Sequence record: OR776998
Length of the DNA stretch: 64,000 nucleotides
Strand: one strand, 5' to 3'
DNA from: Escherichia phage YX22
Below the pieces are notes generated by a model, which saw nothing but the letters and a program-made list of their open reading frames with translations, did not search any database and had not been told where the DNA came from. Made by a program: the position numbers and the translations under genes. Shown here in pieces: positions 1,849-21,235 of the stretch. Positions within the stretch are counted from its first letter, which is position 1. The number at the start of each line of letters is the position of its first letter.

Positions 1849-2591
1849 TGATCCGGCCAGACTCCGTTTTGTTCTTTATCCATGCGATGATACAGACGAA
1901 CACGCTCAAACATCTTTGTCAGAATGTCATCACGGTTGAACTCAATGACGGTTGGTAGAGGGGAAGACTCGTTGGCGATCACGTTGATGAGGCGGGTGAT
2001 CTTGACGCCGAACATCTGCTGGAACATGACCGAATATAAGCATAGCTGGATACTGTAATCCTCGATCATGCCCCGCGTCTTCATGGTGTTCGATGTCTTG
2101 AAGTCGATGACAGCAGGTTTACCCTCATAAACCCCGATAAGGTCTACACGACCTGCAAGACCAAGCACCTCGCTATATAATGGGATCTCCTGAGCATAGA
2201 TCTTTGTCATCTTGTTCAGGTAAGGGAACAGCTGCTTGAACATGAACATGTATTCGCCAGCCGCTTCCAACACTTCTTTCATTGGGCGGTTCTTTAGATA
2301 CAGTTCACACGCAAGGTGCAGCTTCTCCCCTCGGTCAGCACAGCGCATGGTCTCAAGGTCAGCGGCCTCTGCGCCCAGCTTCTTCCTCCAAGACTCAAGC
2401 CATTCATGATCTCCAGTGCGTCCCAGCATAGTCGTGACGGATGTCAGTTTTACACCAGACGGTGAAACGTAATGACGACCATTCTCCGTCGTAACACACT
2501 CCAGTTCCTTGTAAGGAAGTTCGTATTGCTGGAATGTGTAATGACGGTTTTCGAAGTCGTTCAGCTTGCGTAGATCTTGGAGGGATGCCAT
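1845..2591 (-). CDS. PD-(D/E)XK (RecB/Cas4-like) nuclease
   Basis: GRVDLIGV...AVIDFKTS fits the D..(D/E)xK catalytic pattern. It sits next to the helicase. Confidence 0.6.
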   Translation of the reverse strand: MASLQDLRKLNDFENRHYTFQQYELPYKELECVTTENGRHYVSPSGVKLTSVTTMLGRTGDHEWLESWRKKLGAEAADLETMRCADRGEKLHLACELYLKNRPMKEVLEAAGEYMFMFKQLFPYLNKMTKIYAQEIPLYSEVLGLAGRVDLIGVYEGKPAVIDFKTSNTMKTRGMIEDYSIQLCLYSVMFQQMFGVKITRLINVIANESSPLPTVIEFNRDDILTKMFERVRLYHRMDKEQNGVWPDH

Positions 2592-2606
2592 TATGTGTGA
2601 TCCTCG

Positions 2607-3059
2607 TTATACACCATCAATATATTTTCTCCACTCAATAGCATTTTTCACTTCGTATCCCAGTTTGTTCAGGCGATCCAAACAAGTCTCTATGAACTTG
2701 ACTTTTGCTTTTTGTTCTTGTAACAGAACAGACAACTCCACATAGTCATCGTCTGCTTTGACCCATGTATCTAGGTCAGACTTCAGGGGGCGAACCTTCA
2801 GGGGGCGCTCTGCGTAGATGTTAGGGGGTAACTCCCCTGCATAGTAGCGGCGCAGATAGAGATCGATCTGGCGGAAGCGCCCGTTGAGAAATTCAAGATA
2901 ACGCCCCTCGCGCAGATAATGCCGCTGTACAGCCATCCAAGAGCGCCCGATTTTCAGTGAGATCTGGTCAAGGTTCATGTCTTCTGGGTCCACTGTGATC
3001 AGCGGCTCCAGTTCGTTCATGATGTCCTCGGTAGCCATTGTCTGTAGTTGTTCTTTCAT
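2607..3059 (-). CDS. hypothetical protein
   Basis: Clean 150-aa ORF in the minus-strand operon. No motif recognised. Confidence 0.6.
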   Translation of the reverse strand: MKEQLQTMATEDIMNELEPLITVDPEDMNLDQISLKIGRSWMAVQRHYLREGRYLEFLNGRFRQIDLYLRRYYAGELPPNIYAERPLKVRPLKSDLDTWVKADDDYVELSVLLQEQKAKVKFIETCLDRLNKLGYEVKNAIEWRKYIDGV

Positions 3060-3089
3060 AAAATATCCCAGCTTGTCAATGTCATAGAA

Positions 3090-3815
3090 TTATACCGCAT
3101 TTCGCGGATTAGAATCAATCGCCTTCCCACCAGATAGTGGAACCAGCTGTTGGAACTTGAAGGTCACTGTCGTCACCAGCTGAGGTACAGCTGCGTCTAC
3201 GTCCACCAGTACGTTGTCCAAAGCAGTCGGGCGGGCTTCCTCCAGCACGAGAGTGAGGCCAATCGGTCGGTTGAGGTTATCCAGCAATTCAATGGTAATG
3301 TCCTTGCTGACAGGCAAATCCTTGCCGACGTTGCTGGTAATCCATTGGTGGATCTGTAACCATGATTTCCAGTCCTCGTCTATAACGAAAGTAAATACGA
3401 CGGGATCATAGGTTAAACGCTCTGAAGGTATAGAAACCAACACGTCACCAGGAGACGGACCATCGATGCCTTCGGAGTACACCCCTGGTATACTGAAGTC
3501 GTGGATGTTACGGGTTAGGAGTACAAGGTCTCCGATAGTCAGACGCCACTTATCGGACGCCGCGAAATTAGGGTTTTCGTTCTTAAATTGTACGTTGGAC
3601 ATAATAGCACCTTTGCTGTGGAGATATTTTGTGACCCTGATGCGCGGGATCAGTAGATTGTTGTTGGCATGCTCGATGCTCTTGTTTACGAGCTGTCGCA
3701 TCTTTGTCACGCCAATAATTTCTGTTTCCGAACTCTGGAACCCAGAAGTGCGCACTGTACCTGTGACGTTGTCGGCCAGCGTTCCCACTTGTAACAAGGG
3801 TATGCTGGACATCAT
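3090..3815 (-). CDS. hypothetical (possibly structural) protein; start uncertain
   Basis: The minus frame looks coding up to about 3815. Alternative starts lie at 3701 and 3602 (MSNVQFKNE). The ORF-track start at 3905 would overlap the plus-strand gene. Confidence 0.5.
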   Translation of the reverse strand: MMSSIPLLQVGTLADNVTGTVRTSGFQSSETEIIGVTKMRQLVNKSIEHANNNLLIPRIRVTKYLHSKGAIMSNVQFKNENPNFAASDKWRLTIGDLVLLTRNIHDFSIPGVYSEGIDGPSPGDVLVSIPSERLTYDPVVFTFVIDEDWKSWLQIHQWITSNVGKDLPVSKDITIELLDNLNRPIGLTLVLEEARPTALDNVLVDVDAAVPQLVTTVTFKFQQLVPLSGGKAIDSNPRNAV

Positions 3816-3873
3816 CGTGCAAGAGTTCCAGCCCTTCCAGAAGCTCGTACCTTTAGGTTGCTTTGATGAGAAC

Positions 3874-4281
3874 ATGAGCACCCTCAAGCCATACTGGAAG
3901 ACCACAATTCCTCTCCTGCGGCATGGCGATGAAGGGAAGATTCCATACCTATCAGCAAGTATTTATTACTCTCAGAATAACAGCATCATTATCACTTTTA
4001 ATCCATCATTCCATGCCAAGCTGAAGCAACACATGGTTGGGCGACTGGATACAACATCAGATATAATCGTGACGTTCAAGATCATGAATGACTCAGATAA
4101 ACCAGTACGAATCGCAACTCAGGGTGTGTTCGTTAACAACGACGCGGTTGGAAATGGGATGAGTATCTTTGAAGTTAACCCAGGGGGAACGATCTTGATC
4201 AGACTGAGTAATGTGGGTGTGAACTCCCTGCTGTTGGATGGCATCGAACCAGTGGGAGTTCTTCCGGCGCGGGAGCACTGA
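3874..4281 (+). CDS. hypothetical protein on the opposite strand
   Basis: Only the C-terminal 135 aa of plus ORF 3466..4281 looks protein-like. No credible minus ORF covers 3906-4281. Its stop abuts the stop of the 4282 gene. Confidence 0.45.
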   Translation: MSTLKPYWKTTIPLLRHGDEGKIPYLSASIYYSQNNSIIITFNPSFHAKLKQHMVGRLDTTSDIIVTFKIMNDSDKPVRIATQGVFVNNDAVGNGMSIFEVNPGGTILIRLSNVGVNSLLLDGIEPVGVLPAREH

Positions 4282-14894: not shown

Positions 14895-15608
14895 TTACAC
14901 AATTCTAATTAGCTGCCAACCCGTCGTGTTCAAACGCTCTGCGGTCGCAGTTTTCCTATGATACACAGACGGTGGTGGAACTGGAATACCCTTGTCGATG
15001 TAATCATAGAGTGCTGAATATTTAAGTCCCAACCTCTCCACATATTCACGACAGTTCCCGTGGATTTCGTGTTCTTCACCGGAAGGAGATACCAATTTGA
15101 ATCGCTTTGCATGACCGTTGTTCTTGCCCTTTCTGATTCCAGTTTCAATGCATTTTCGACTAAATGATAATTTACCTTCTTCTTTCCATTCAACCCCGAT
15201 CCGACAGCTAATGATTTCTCCTGTTTTCCACCGTGGATCATCGCAATCAACTAAACCGAGATGTTCACCAGTAGAAGTCAAAACTGCTCCGTGTTTATTG
15301 GAAAATGTGGACCCGTCTCCACCCCAGGTCTTGTTGTACCCTTTCTGAGTTGACATGTGGGTTCCGTGTTGCTTTATAAGAATGATTTCCAATTCTTTTA
15401 GATCTTCCAGGGATTTGGTCTGGGCTAACACTTGAACAGAAAAGGACTCTTCTCCGTACTTTCTTATTGCTTGGTGAATAAAGTAATCAGATCCCTTCTG
15501 AGCACTATTGCAGTGCTCCCACCACCTTTGCATAGGGTCTCTCGTCGTTATCCCAATATAGGCTTTCTGATTTACTAGATTTGTAATTTTGTAAACACTT
15601 CCGATCAT
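14895..15608 (-). CDS. GIY-YIG homing endonuclease (Seg-like)
   Basis: VYKITNLVNQKAYIGIT..R..EH motif. A+T-rich insert between the sheath and tube genes, with its own promoter-like element. Confidence 0.8.
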   Translation of the reverse strand: MIGSVYKITNLVNQKAYIGITTRDPMQRWWEHCNSAQKGSDYFIHQAIRKYGEESFSVQVLAQTKSLEDLKELEIILIKQHGTHMSTQKGYNKTWGGDGSTFSNKHGAVLTSTGEHLGLVDCDDPRWKTGEIISCRIGVEWKEEGKLSFSRKCIETGIRKGKNNGHAKRFKLVSPSGEEHEIHGNCREYVERLGLKYSALYDYIDKGIPVPPPSVYHRKTATAERLNTTGWQLIRIV

Positions 15609-17638: not shown

Positions 17639-19849
17639 TCACCGTCTCAGCCATTCTTCCATAGACATACCAGAGCGTTCATCATAAACCTGAATTCCAC
17701 CGAACCCTGAGATGTTCTCCACAGAGTGAGGATCTGGCGTCGACATCATACCCCCAAATGGTAGCATCTGAGATTCTTCCATCGCAGACAACCGTCCTCT
17801 CATGTCCACAGAGATATTTGAATTGGTGAGATCACTAAACCATTCTTGTTTCACCGCCCATGCATACAACACGAGGGGCATTACACAGTCATCATGACAA
17901 CCATCATCGGCTTCATACCTTGTTCCAGTCCATACGAATGTACTGAGTTCATCTATCGTGTCCTGGTCATCTATCACCAGCATTTCACGTTCAATCAGGG
18001 CTTTCAGGTTGGCACAGCCGTTTGTGCGCACCTTCTTGTTGGTATTGATACCAGGTTCAGGGCGGCGACCACCGATTCTCTTGCCTGTACCCTTGGTATC
18101 TGTTGTGGTGAAGATGATCTCTGGATATTCAATTTCTTGGTATAGAATTGTGATTACCTGACCACCCACGTCGTTGTTGGTCTCGACTAGCATCGGGCAC
18201 GTTCCATACTTCTCACCCATATCGGCGATTGTGTACGCATACATCATTGGAGGTATCGTGTTATTTCGATACTTGGCTGCGATCTTGTGAGGATAGTCTG
18301 TGATGTCGATAATGGTCAGCACAGAATAATCCCCTTCGACACCCTTGCCTGTATCTGCGATACCCATATAGATGCGCTTAGGATCGTAGTCGTGATAAAT
18401 CTTGGTGAACTCGTTCGGCTCCTGATACAGCTTCGAGGTCATCTTGTCCAGACACTTGGCAGGTATCAGTGATCCCACAGAACCACGGAACTTAATGCCA
18501 AATTCTTGATCGAAACGTGCATCACCCAGCTTCGCCCTTTGTTTGGATTCCCAGTCTGGATCTTTGGTGTACGTTGGAACACGATACCATGGGACCTCGG
18601 TGAGTTTGAAGTCGTTGTATTGTGGGTGTTCTGGGTTCGCCTTGGTGACGATGTCGTAGAACAACCCGCGCTGACCTTTCGGCGTACTGGTCAGAATACA
18701 ACGTGAAGTCTCTGCAGATGCAATCGCCGGGAATGTAGACTCCCAGAATTCAAAGTCGTTTTCAATGAACGCCACTTCGTCCACATACAGGAGCGATACA
18801 GATCGACCACGGATGGAGTCGGAAGATGTCGCATAGGCGTAGATCTTTGATCCGTTTTCGAACTCTATCAGCGTGGAACCGAACTTCTCACAACCCTGTT
18901 GGAGGAAGAATGGCAAATCTTGATATGCTTTGCGAATACGATCTAGGATTTCAATCGCCTGCTTCTCTTTGTTCGCCAGTACTGCGATCTCTTTGTCGGA
19001 GTGGAACATCGCATACCAGAGCAGGAACGCTGCCACGACAGTCGTGTTGTGGCTGAGGAAGCCGTTGGTGTAGTAGCGCTGATCACTAGATTTCACCTGT
19101 AGGTCATACATGTGATGCGTCTCACCAGTCTGCCAAACCTCACGGATTTCTTCTGGACCTTCTGACGTCATGATGTATGACCCAGCATTCAGGTCTTTGG
19201 CAAATATCTCCTTCATTTCCGGAGTGAAGAATATATGTTCGTCGGCCACGTTAATTCGCCGCCCAGTAACAGTCACAATAACGAATTCCGCATATTTCTT
19301 CGTCTTATGCGCTGCGATAACCGGAACCCAGCCACTATCGGATTGCACAAAGTAACGTTTGCCGAAGCGGCTGTCCACGAACTTGTCATGGTTGCCAATG
19401 GTATTCAGCGGCACAGCGTGGTTGACGTCCTCGAAGCGGCTGTGAAGCTCCCCTATGGTCAGGAGCAACTGCTCTTGGCTGAGAGTATCGTAAACTGTGA
19501 CAAGCGTGTCACCTTTTACACATTTCCCAGACTGACGAGCCTGGACGACCGCATTGAATCGATAGTCCTGGAAGTCATGGAACAACTGCTTCTGGTAATC
19601 GTGCATGTCAAAGAGGATGAAGCCTTTATCGATGGTCGTGATCTTGTAGTAGTTGGCGGCGAAGTAATGGGCGTCCATCGCACACTCGACGAACTCCGAT
19701 TCTTGTTCGTCGGTTAGCATCAACTCCACACGAGGTGCACGCACAGACGGCTTGCGCATGAACGTTTGGTCCATACGCAGTCTGACGTCTTCTGTCTTAA
19801 ACCCCGTCTTGAGCGGGGCGTATTCTACATCACGCTTCTGATACGCCAT
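17639..19849 (-). CDS. terminase large subunit (T4 gp17-like), intein-containing
   Basis: Once residues 113-271 are removed the Walker A reads QARQSGK|TTVVAAFLL, as in T4 gp17 SRQLGKTTVVAIF. Walker B is LLYVDEVAF. Confidence 0.9.
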   Translation of the reverse strand: MAYQKRDVEYAPLKTGFKTEDVRLRMDQTFMRKPSVRAPRVELMLTDEQESEFVECAMDAHYFAANYYKITTIDKGFILFDMHDYQKQLFHDFQDYRFNAVVQARQSGKCVKGDTLVTVYDTLSQEQLLLTIGELHSRFEDVNHAVPLNTIGNHDKFVDSRFGKRYFVQSDSGWVPVIAAHKTKKYAEFVIVTVTGRRINVADEHIFFTPEMKEIFAKDLNAGSYIMTSEGPEEIREVWQTGETHHMYDLQVKSSDQRYYTNGFLSHNTTVVAAFLLWYAMFHSDKEIAVLANKEKQAIEILDRIRKAYQDLPFFLQQGCEKFGSTLIEFENGSKIYAYATSSDSIRGRSVSLLYVDEVAFIENDFEFWESTFPAIASAETSRCILTSTPKGQRGLFYDIVTKANPEHPQYNDFKLTEVPWYRVPTYTKDPDWESKQRAKLGDARFDQEFGIKFRGSVGSLIPAKCLDKMTSKLYQEPNEFTKIYHDYDPKRIYMGIADTGKGVEGDYSVLTIIDITDYPHKIAAKYRNNTIPPMMYAYTIADMGEKYGTCPMLVETNNDVGGQVITILYQEIEYPEIIFTTTDTKGTGKRIGGRRPEPGINTNKKVRTNGCANLKALIEREMLVIDDQDTIDELSTFVWTGTRYEADDGCHDDCVMPLVLYAWAVKQEWFSDLTNSNISVDMRGRLSAMEESQMLPFGGMMSTPDPHSVENISGFGGIQVYDERSGMSMEEWLRR
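19046..19522 (-). mobile_element. mini-intein (159 aa, no endonuclease domain) in the terminase P-loop
   Basis: Starts with CVKGDTLV and ends with YDLQV...NGFLSHN followed by Thr. Both junction codons were checked in the DNA. Confidence 0.8.
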
Positions 19850-20537
19850 TGTCTTCACCTTCTTCCTTCGGCTGCGGCTCGGCCTGAACGTCGATTACAT
19901 CTTCTTCGGGTTCAGGTCCTTTGGACGCAGCTTTCGCTGCAGCACGTTCTTCAGCACGTTTACGGGCGTCTTCGATGGTCTTCAGTAGATCACGGGAAGA
20001 CCTGGCCTGTTTACCGACGTTGACCGTGGTTGTGCCATCAGGGGACGTGGTGACCTCGACGGTTGTTTCATCTCCAGGAGGTGGCTCTCTGTCGCCCGTG
20101 ACCGCCTTGATAGTTTTCTGGTTCTCCATCAGGTCTTTGTTCAGGCCGCGCATGAGTTCACCCAACTCTTTGAAGACTGTAAAGGCACGGGGTGCTTCAG
20201 TCGTCGTCGCAAGTTTGGCTGCCTGTCCCATCATGAACATCGTGGCTTCCTGCATGGCATAAGTCGTGTCACGGATGCGTTTGTAGTCGGTGGTGGCATC
20301 AGTGTCTTCGAAGTCTGGAACCTTAGACTCCTTGGGCTTCAGCTCTTCTGGGTCCAATGAAGGAGGAAACACCACAGGCTCATACCCCGCAGGCTTTTCA
20401 CCCAACCATTCGCCTGTATCCGGATCGTAATCTTTTCCGGCCATAGGCGAGGTCTTCTCCATGACTTCTTGAGCGACCTCATCCCGCGCTTGGATAGCAC
20501 TGAGGGTGGATAATAGGCGTTCTGACATAGCACTCAT
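19830..20537 (-). CDS. terminase small subunit (gp16 position)
   Basis: Sits just upstream of, and overlapping, the large terminase gene. ATG at 20537 with a GGAGAT SD. Called on synteny only. Confidence 0.5.
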   Translation of the reverse strand: MSAMSERLLSTLSAIQARDEVAQEVMEKTSPMAGKDYDPDTGEWLGEKPAGYEPVVFPPSLDPEELKPKESKVPDFEDTDATTDYKRIRDTTYAMQEATMFMMGQAAKLATTTEAPRAFTVFKELGELMRGLNKDLMENQKTIKAVTGDREPPPGDETTVEVTTSPDGTTTVNVGKQARSSRDLLKTIEDARKRAEERAAAKAASKGPEPEEDVIDVQAEPQPKEEGEDNGVSEA

Positions 20538-20539
20538 AA

Positions 20540-21235
20540 TCAATCTCCAGGATGATGTACACCGTCTTTGTCAACACGGAACCACTCCGGCAGTTCCGTC
20601 CACGGTGTTTTCAAATCATTAGACATTTCGATAATTATCTCTTTGATCCCGTTAGGATCCCCGCCTCCCTCGTTGTCCACCCAATAGTCATACCCGTAGA
20701 TGAAGCCGCTCAGCTGGAACATGAAGGAGCAGTCGACGTGTGGTGAATCAGAAGCATCCCCTTCCCAGTTATCGGACATCTGGTGGCTGACCAGTTGGAT
20801 CTTGATCTTCTGGTCTTGCTGTAGTGTATCGTTGTCCTTGATACCACAGTCTAGAGAGGGAGTGAATACCGAATAAACCTGCTCTAGCACCTGTAACATC
20901 TCAACTAATTTCTTGGTTCGGATATTGTACTCAAAATCGATAATCAGGGGGATTCGCTGCTTCGCCCCTGCTGTTGGTGTCGATTGTCGATTGTGGTACG
21001 TCTTCGTCACCTGTTTGTTGATCTCAAACTGACCAAAAGAGAAGGTCGCAAATGGAAGCATGTTGGACGGCACGTTCCTGTTGAGGTCATTGCGTCTCCC
21101 GATGGCCATGTGTAATGGGACTTCCATAAGACCACGCTCTGTGTTCACCTTCAGATCAGACATAATGGTGGCAAACAGATTGATGTATTTCATCAATGAA
21201 TCATGGTAGAAGTAATTTTCAAATGGTCTGGCCAT
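20540..21235 (-). CDS. tail completion/sheath stabiliser (gp15 position)
   Basis: Called on synteny with T4 genes 13-14-15-16-17. Confidence 0.45.
   Translation of the reverse strand: MARPFENYFYHDSLMKYINLFATIMSDLKVNTERGLMEVPLHMAIGRRNDLNRNVPSNMLPFATFSFGQFEINKQVTKTYHNRQSTPTAGAKQRIPLIIDFEYNIRTKKLVEMLQVLEQVYSVFTPSLDCGIKDNDTLQQDQKIKIQLVSHQMSDNWEGDASDSPHVDCSFMFQLSGFIYGYDYWVDNEGGGDPNGIKEIIIEMSNDLKTPWTELPEWFRVDKDGVHHPGD

Follow-up and report, generated by a model that had tools for sequence, protein, structure and literature searches.

The lysine-threonine bond of the ATPase P-loop was described by Kelley et al. in 2016 as a classic intein insertion site, in Terminase_1-type mycobacteriophage large terminases (TerL) (PMC5050341). 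Here we describe a 159-amino-acid (aa) insert at this bond in the TerL of Escherichia phage YX22, encoded on the minus strand at positions 19046..19522 of the 64,000 nucleotides (nt) that were analyzed from sequence record OR776998 and are called the window below. The mycobacteriophage TerL1-a intein likewise lies between the invariant Walker A lysine and the nucleophilic threonine of a large terminase (PMC5050341). However, its host belongs to the Terminase_1 family, whereas the YX22 host protein is of the T4-type Terminase_6 family, and the likeness drawn here is one of insertion site. The only Terminase_6-like intein in that study was found in the C-motif (site f) and not in the P-loop. The closest solved relatives of the YX22 intein are VidaL and Cat by profile, and VidaL also by fold. 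The AceL-TerL, GOS-TerL, and Cat inteins are also hosted in phage large terminases. These three and VidaL are split and splice in trans, with N-fragments of 16 to 37 aa and C-fragments of 104 to 115 aa (tabulated for the TerL inteins), and the +1 residue is cysteine in AceL-TerL, GOS-TerL, and Cat; the YX22 intein, in contrast, is contiguous and is followed by threonine. The gp41-1 intein (PDB 6qaz), from a cyanophage-like DnaB-type helicase, is a compact, endonuclease-free phage mini-intein whose profile match covers blocks B to G, but it differs from the YX22 intein in its host protein, in being naturally split, and in being shorter (128 aa in the solved fused chain).

The TerL intein itself is already known and annotated in sister phages. 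The 2013 genome announcement of the Vi01-like phage Marshall states that the large terminase "is interrupted by an intein" (PMC3853055). GenBank record MH688040, from Salmonella phage Mooltan, carries an "intein-containing terminase large subunit precursor" with a mat_peptide "intein" at exactly the homologous 477 nt, and RefSeq holds an "intein" peptide for Salmonella phages Maynard and Marshall (YP_008772116). The TerL intein of Marshall, Maynard, and Mooltan is the same element as that of YX22, with the same gene, the same Lys|Thr site, and the same length of 159 aa. At the protein level, the YX22 intein is 76% identical to the D-type alleles of these three phages and 96 to 97% identical to the S-type alleles of SE14, PhiSH19, and S118. 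Unlike Marshall, Maynard, and Mooltan, YX22 is an Agtrevirus-like coliphage, and its intein is chimeric between the SE14 type and the Ag3 type. Most records of the family, including the closest (LHE287, RPN242, and AV101), label the gene only "terminase large subunit," and the label "pretoxin HINT domain protein" in Dickeya phage records is a misnaming of the same intein. A 2024 review of the Ackermannviridae does not mention inteins. YX22 represents a coliphage lineage with an intein, against the statement in another 2024 paper that none had been reported in coliphages (PMC11162368).

We conclude, with a probability of roughly 90%, that 19046..19522 on the minus strand encodes a class-1 mini-intein of 159 residues (Cys1 to Asn159), presumably self-splicing and lacking a homing endonuclease domain, in the Walker A motif of TerL. 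This assignment is made because family models, empty sites in orthologues, the host motif, the catalytic residues, the structural relatives, and the predicted fold all point to it. The TerL intein is a typical case of inteins favoring ATPase P-loops. A mini-intein had been proposed here by an earlier reading of the letters of the window alone (the sequence-only reading), which missed both the prior annotation in sister phages and the textbook status of the P-loop site.

Boundaries, catalytic residues, and fold of the insert

The exteins, the intein, and its motifs all lie on the minus strand. The N-extein has 109 aa from the ATG start (19523..19849) and ends in the first half of Walker A, QARQSGK (19523..19543). 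The C-extein has 468 aa and a stop codon (17639..19045); its +1 threonine (TTVVAAF) completes Walker A, and it holds the rest of the ATPase and the RNaseH-like nuclease. Between the two, residues 113 to 271, numbered from a GTG start, read CVKGDTLV...YDLQVKSSDQRYYTNGFLSHN and are followed by threonine. The sequence-only reading had placed an intein at 19046 to 19522 (C113 to N271, 159 aa), and translation reproduced these coordinates, the length, and the flanking residues exactly; its residue numbers run three higher than those of the databases, since they are counted from GTG and not from ATG, and in ATG-based numbering the intein spans C110 to N268. It had further held that the insert is an intein, that removing it restores the gp17 P-loop, and that there is no room for an endonuclease, and all three claims are borne out by the results that follow.

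Removal of the insert joins QARQSGK to TTVVAAF, i.e., the insert splits the Walker A lysine from the next threonine. The spliced extein is continuous with SRQLGKTTVVA of T4 gp17, and the two Walker A regions align without a gap (vvqaRQsGKTTVVAaFL in YX22 versus cnlsRQlGKTTVVAiFL in T4 gp17). With the intein removed, the 580-aa TerL counted from GTG matched T4 gp17 (PDB 3ezk and 3cpe) at an E value of 3.5e-72 over residues 31 to 520. The insert (0.50) and the terL gene (0.48 to 0.51) are alike in GC content.

The insert carries the conserved intein blocks at both ends. By translation, block A is CVKGDTLV (19499..19522), which begins with the nucleophile Cys1, the intein's only cysteine. Block B is ADEH (intein residues 93 to 96, 19235..19246), and blocks F and G are MYDLQVKSSDQRYYTNGFLSHN (19046..19111), with Asp140 in block F, His158 as the penultimate residue, and Asn159 as the last. 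In an alignment of 30 sequences (29 homologues, with identity down to 28%), the invariant positions include C1, H96, D140, S157, H158, and N159, and threonine directly follows the intein as the +1 residue in every TerL aligned. Blocks B and F, between which large inteins carry endonuclease domains, are only about 43 residues apart. No endonuclease family was matched in the 159-aa insert in Pfam, and the insert folds as a single compact domain. It is encoded as one uninterrupted in-frame segment of the open reading frame (ORF), and the YX22 intein is therefore not a split intein.

Profile searches relate the insert to inteins of known structure. A profile built from nine TerL inteins matched the window ORF at an E value of 1.5e-76 and nothing else in the six-frame translations of the window; a chance origin of the intein match is not plausible on this sequence comparison, and a second intein in the window was rejected on the same search. 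Against solved structures, the nine-intein profile matched VidaL (6e-11), gp41-1 (5e-10), and the Cat consensus TerL intein (CatC; 4e-9), with weaker matches to the DnaE, GyrA, DnaX, RadA, and DnaB inteins. The nine-sequence profile was needed to reach these relatives, since a search of the PDB with the single sequence was weak (best E value, 0.009). Similarly, the intein alone gave two matches in a collection of 5.8 billion proteins, and the needed diversity came from a query with the full-length TerL.

An AlphaFold2 model of the insert, made from the 30-sequence alignment, has a pLDDT of 95.5 and a pTM of 0.88 and shows the HINT fold, an all-beta horseshoe with two short helices. The top 50 Foldseek matches in the PDB are all inteins or bacterial intein-like (BIL) domains, with query-normalized TM-scores of up to 0.79 and a best E value of 5.8e-11 (VidaL). 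A class-3 intein was rejected, since Cys1 is present and the pattern of block-B tryptophan, block-F cysteine, and block-G threonine is not. BIL and Hedgehog-type Hint domains lie in variable, nonconserved regions and do not have a conserved +1 nucleophile in a conserved host motif. A domain of either type was rejected because the insert is located inside the invariant Walker A motif and is followed by a conserved +1 threonine. As a compact, contiguous, single-cysteine relative of AceL-TerL, Cat, and VidaL from a mesophilic enteric phage, the YX22 intein could suit protein engineering.

Empty sites and variants at the P-loop

The sequence-only reading had proposed a comparison with intein-free orthologues, and these lack exactly the predicted intein. 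The TerL of Erwinia phage phiEa2809 (genus Nezavisimistyvirus, same family) has 580 aa, is 77% identical to the YX22 extein, and is intein-free; its junction is QARQSGK|TTVVAAF, and the alignment gap corresponds to the intein from its first cysteine to its last asparagine. The same exact gap is found with the TerL of Vibrio phage K393 (580 aa, 56% identical, QCRQSGK|TTVVAAF) and with five metagenomic TerL orthologues, P0015 to P0019 (74 to 85% identical, 575 to 581 aa).

The full-length intein is present in about 284 of 50,697 phage records. Relatives whose exteins are at least 60% identical all have it except for four Erwinia phage records, and its presence is patchy among Vibrio relatives and metagenomes. 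In a neighbor-joining tree of the exteins (no bootstrap), intein-free TerLs are nested among intein-containing ones. A 103-aa protein (P0002), labeled "hypothetical protein, partial [Salmonella enterica]" at NCBI and encoded on a 311-nt contig, matches the end of the N-extein plus the N-terminal part of the intein at 98% identity; its source is probably phage DNA within a bacterial assembly.

Metagenomic TerLs also have inserts at the Lys|Thr site, of 150 to 181 aa and of roughly 400 to 450 aa. The larger ones, in P0054, P0060, P0061, P0064, and P0069 (948 to 987 aa), have a cysteine directly after the GK of Walker A. No Pfam endonuclease match was found in the large inserts of the three that were scanned (P0054, P0060, and P0069), and the five inserts may be full-size inteins with an unrecognized endonuclease at the same site. 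P0083 (970 aa) has a P-loop insert of mini-intein size and a separate, weak SegE-like GIY-YIG match downstream. In P0059 (the TerL of Vibrio phage VP-1), P0052, P0056, and P0089, a GIY-YIG domain follows the ATPase at about aa 500 to 590 (327 to 409 in P0089), and no Terminase_6C nuclease domain is detectable in these four proteins. This suggests that an endonuclease gene either interrupts these terL genes between the two domains or is fused to them there. P0059, P0052, and P0056 also carry the P-loop mini-intein.

Three cultured phages carry related inteins in other arrangements. In Delftia phage PhiW-14 (locus L013, ~1920..2810), a related intein occupies the same GK|T site of TerL and is broken by two in-frame stops. 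The N-terminal ORF, which is unannotated, ends in ...ARQMGK-CVQGD...QQLDGRG, a 43-aa N-intein piece, and the annotated gp17 begins within the intein and runs to ...YYTNGVASHN|TTTVAAF. From its sequence, the TerL intein of this cultured phage appears to be split naturally and in an atypical way. In Agrobacterium phage Atu_ph07 (locus L015), the annotation divides TerL between two neighboring genes, 1983..2354 and 2366..4174, that differ in frame. The first ends in GRQLGK-SVHKST...KLVR*, a 42-aa N-intein piece that starts with Ser1, and the second contains ...LFYTNGILSHN|TTVAAAYLLW; Atu_ph07 is thus a candidate for a second naturally split intein at the same P-loop site. Campylobacter phage CP21 (locus L014, ~2300..2840) has a related TerL intein of 145 aa located three residues upstream of the Lys|Thr site. 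Its junctions are MQPRQ|C...SHN|SSKSTT; the interrupted P-loop is the same, but the peptide bond is another one, and the +1 residue is serine.

Predicted splicing and alternative readings

The predicted course of splicing follows from residue conservation and established intein chemistry. The precursor would be translated as a single chain of 736 aa, within which the intein would fold into the HINT domain. Cys1 would perform the N-S acyl shift, and the +1 threonine would attack the thioester to give a branched intermediate. Asn159 would then cyclize, aided by His158, the block-B His96, and the block-F Asp140, and an O-N shift would leave a normal peptide bond (...RQSGK-TTVVAAF...), with SGK-TTVVAAFLLWYAMFH as the ligated junction. 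The mature TerL would have 577 aa (580 aa counted from the alternative GTG), and the terL of these phages would best be annotated as an intein-containing precursor of that product. In the unspliced precursor, the interrupted P-loop would be unable to bind ATP, and an intact ATP-binding loop would exist only in the spliced protein, so that packaging would require splicing. A record search found a single terL copy per genome, and there is no second terL in the window. Because this only copy has its Walker A motif split, the statement of the sequence-only reading that packaging must depend on protein splicing is a sound inference.

Several points weigh against a splicing mini-intein on which packaging depends. 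The dependence is argued from the position of the insert in Walker A, and the searchable literature holds no experimental report of splicing for this or any other Ackermannviridae TerL. The block-B motif is ADxH throughout the lineage, i.e., the usual threonine has been lost to alanine. The domain search that the sequence-only reading had proposed gave a mixed outcome: with the intein alone as its query, NCBIfam intein_Nterm (TIGR01445) scored 25.1, above its cutoff of 24.5, whereas Pfam Intein_splicing (PF14890) scored 35.0 bits, just below its cutoff of 35.8, and NCBIfam intein_Cterm (TIGR01443), which aligns to the last 21 residues, scored 11.9, below its cutoff of 15.6.

One alternative, compatible with a mini-intein at this site, is that the phages have domesticated the intein to serve as a conditional switch, in which splicing delayed or gated by temperature, redox, assembly state, or a host factor would activate the packaging ATPase late. 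The benefit of such a switch would account for the near-universal retention of the intein in enterobacterial Ackermannviridae, and the intein has no endonuclease for selfish maintenance. It is also under purifying selection, with a dN/dS of about 0.1 to 0.2 versus 0.03 to 0.05 for the exteins, values that are readable from few pairs only, since dS is saturated in most cross-genus pairs. However, retention is equally explained by the difficulty of precise deletion from an essential P-loop, and any intein in an essential gene should be under purifying selection. Moreover, the intein shows no sensing feature, with Cys1 as its sole cysteine it cannot form an internal disulfide trap, and the nesting of intein-free orthologues among intein-containing ones indicates that the intein is dispensable. 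We therefore consider a conditional switch unlikely.

The lost block-B threonine and the two curated models that score marginally under threshold, together with splicing being a prediction here, are what could be expected if the HINT domain were decayed and were retained in the mature terminase, or if it cleaved without ligating. The catalytic residues are nevertheless all invariant over 30 divergent homologues, the Walker A lysine and threonine are split in phages that are viable and lytic and have no other terL copy, and orthologues function without the insert. In addition, protein splicing is active in the closest solved relatives (VidaL, gp41-1, and Cat), and in an HMM alignment VidaL likewise has alanine at the usual block-B threonine position. 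An inactive domain is thus very improbable. Removal of the segment at the nucleic acid level, by an intron or by translational bypass and without protein splicing, deserves even less credit: T4-like structural genes commonly harbor group I introns and homing endonuclease genes, and a Campylobacter phage terL has both an intron and an intein (PMC3322345), but the YX22 ORF is uninterrupted and in frame, its codons evolve as those of a protein (dN/dS well below 1), and it encodes a confidently predicted protein fold with intein catalytic residues at both junctions.

A splicing mini-intein of this kind, being free of an endonuclease, would be unable to home alone and would persist by vertical descent. 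It would also move between coinfecting phages by ordinary homologous recombination, for which a 423-nt tract of SE14 type in the YX22 gene is evidence.

Intein allele exchange and the setting of terL

The recombinant tract of 423 nt (19143..19565, minus strand; gene nt 285 to 707) is of SE14 type in an otherwise Agtrevirus-type gene. It takes in 43 nt at the end of the N-extein, up to the N-terminal splice junction, and then runs 380 nt (about 127 codons) into the intein, stopping 97 nt short of the C-terminal junction; both of its ends lie in stretches conserved between the alleles. Within the tract, the gene is 97.2% identical to Kuttervirus SE14 and 73.5% identical to Agtrevirus Ag3, whereas outside it terL is 77.8% identical to SE14 and 90.7% identical to Ag3. 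Of the informative sites, 105 side with SE14 and 5 with Ag3 inside the tract, whereas outside it the counts are 74 and 304, respectively (Fisher P = 1e-50). The intein is thus of SE14 type in residues 1 to about 127 and of Ag3 type in the last 32 or so, at its 3' end, which makes the YX22 intein itself a chimera.

At least three intein alleles, about 75% identical to one another at the protein level, occur in the family. The transfer was likely from an SE14-like Kuttervirus to the Agtrevirus lineage of LHE287 and AV101, as judged from the sequences. In Salmonella phage ISTP3 (locus L016, 2501..2977), the intein is a patchwork that is of Det7 type from gene nt 271 to ~380, of SE14 type from ~391 to 510, and of Det7 type thereafter, and terL upstream of nt 270 is SE14-like. 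This patchwork is further and independent evidence that short-patch recombination occurs inside the intein. At the level of sequence, the YX22 tract shows that intein alleles cross between genera of therapeutic phages without an intein-borne endonuclease, and the intein should be stripped before terL-based phylogenies are built, given this exchange.

Homologous recombination during coinfection would be the simplest mechanism of exchange. Coconversion by a nearby free-standing endonuclease is unsupported, since the GIY-YIG gene of the window (14895..15608) is 3.4 kb away and the sequence between is of Ag3 type. Nor is there an endonuclease gene between terS and terL in the window, unlike in Dickeya phage LIMEstone1 (locus L007, 3192..4076), where the homing endonuclease gene F-LimIX lies between these genes, directly upstream of an intein-containing terL. 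It is conceivable, though improbable as a whole, that the S-type allele recently crossed from Kuttervirus to Agtrevirus by short-patch recombination centered on the intein and, more than a stranded parasite, may persist through useful splicing, either as a posttranslational timer of the packaging ATPase or as a barrier to recombination or compatibility in terL during coinfection.

The terL precursor, a T4 gp17-type large terminase, is encoded at 17639..19849 on the minus strand and has 736 aa from the ATG at 19849, as supported by the ORF list, Pfam, and the annotation of Escherichia phage LHE287 (99.5% identical), in which the 736-aa version is annotated at the same coordinates. The longest ORF (17639..19858, minus strand, 739 aa) starts with GTG three codons upstream of this ATG. 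The ATG is the terL start in all public annotations of near-identical phages and is preceded at about 8 nt by a purine-rich ribosome-binding site of AAGG type. The start of terL overlaps the end of terS (19830..20543) by 20 to 29 nt. In Pfam, Terminase_6N matches residues 272 to 464, directly after the insert, and Terminase_6C matches downstream; the protein has the N-terminal ATPase with Walker A and the C-terminal RNaseH-like nuclease domain of gp17-type (Terminase_6) large terminases.

In total, 254 records match the window terL. Identity is 98 to 99% with RPN242, A221, and AV101, about 87.5% with Shigella phage Ag3 (Agtrevirus), and 78 to 84% with Kuttervirus phages. Because of these identities, the window is assigned, on sequence grounds, to the T4-like structural module of an Agtrevirus-like Ackermannviridae (Vi01-like) coliphage. 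Its gene order is gp23, gp22, gp21, gp20, gp19, gp18, terL (gp17), terS (gp16), gp15, gp14, gp13, and the tail spikes.

The free-standing GIY-YIG homing endonuclease gene (14895..15608, minus strand, 237 aa, Pfam GIY-YIG at 5.4e-09) is flanked by the genes for the tail tube (gp19) and the tail sheath (gp18). Its counterpart in RPN242 shares 99.1% identity with it, and "F-LimII" of Dickeya phages is a homologue. LHE287 has two small hypothetical ORFs annotated at this interval, and the locus is thus variable among close relatives.

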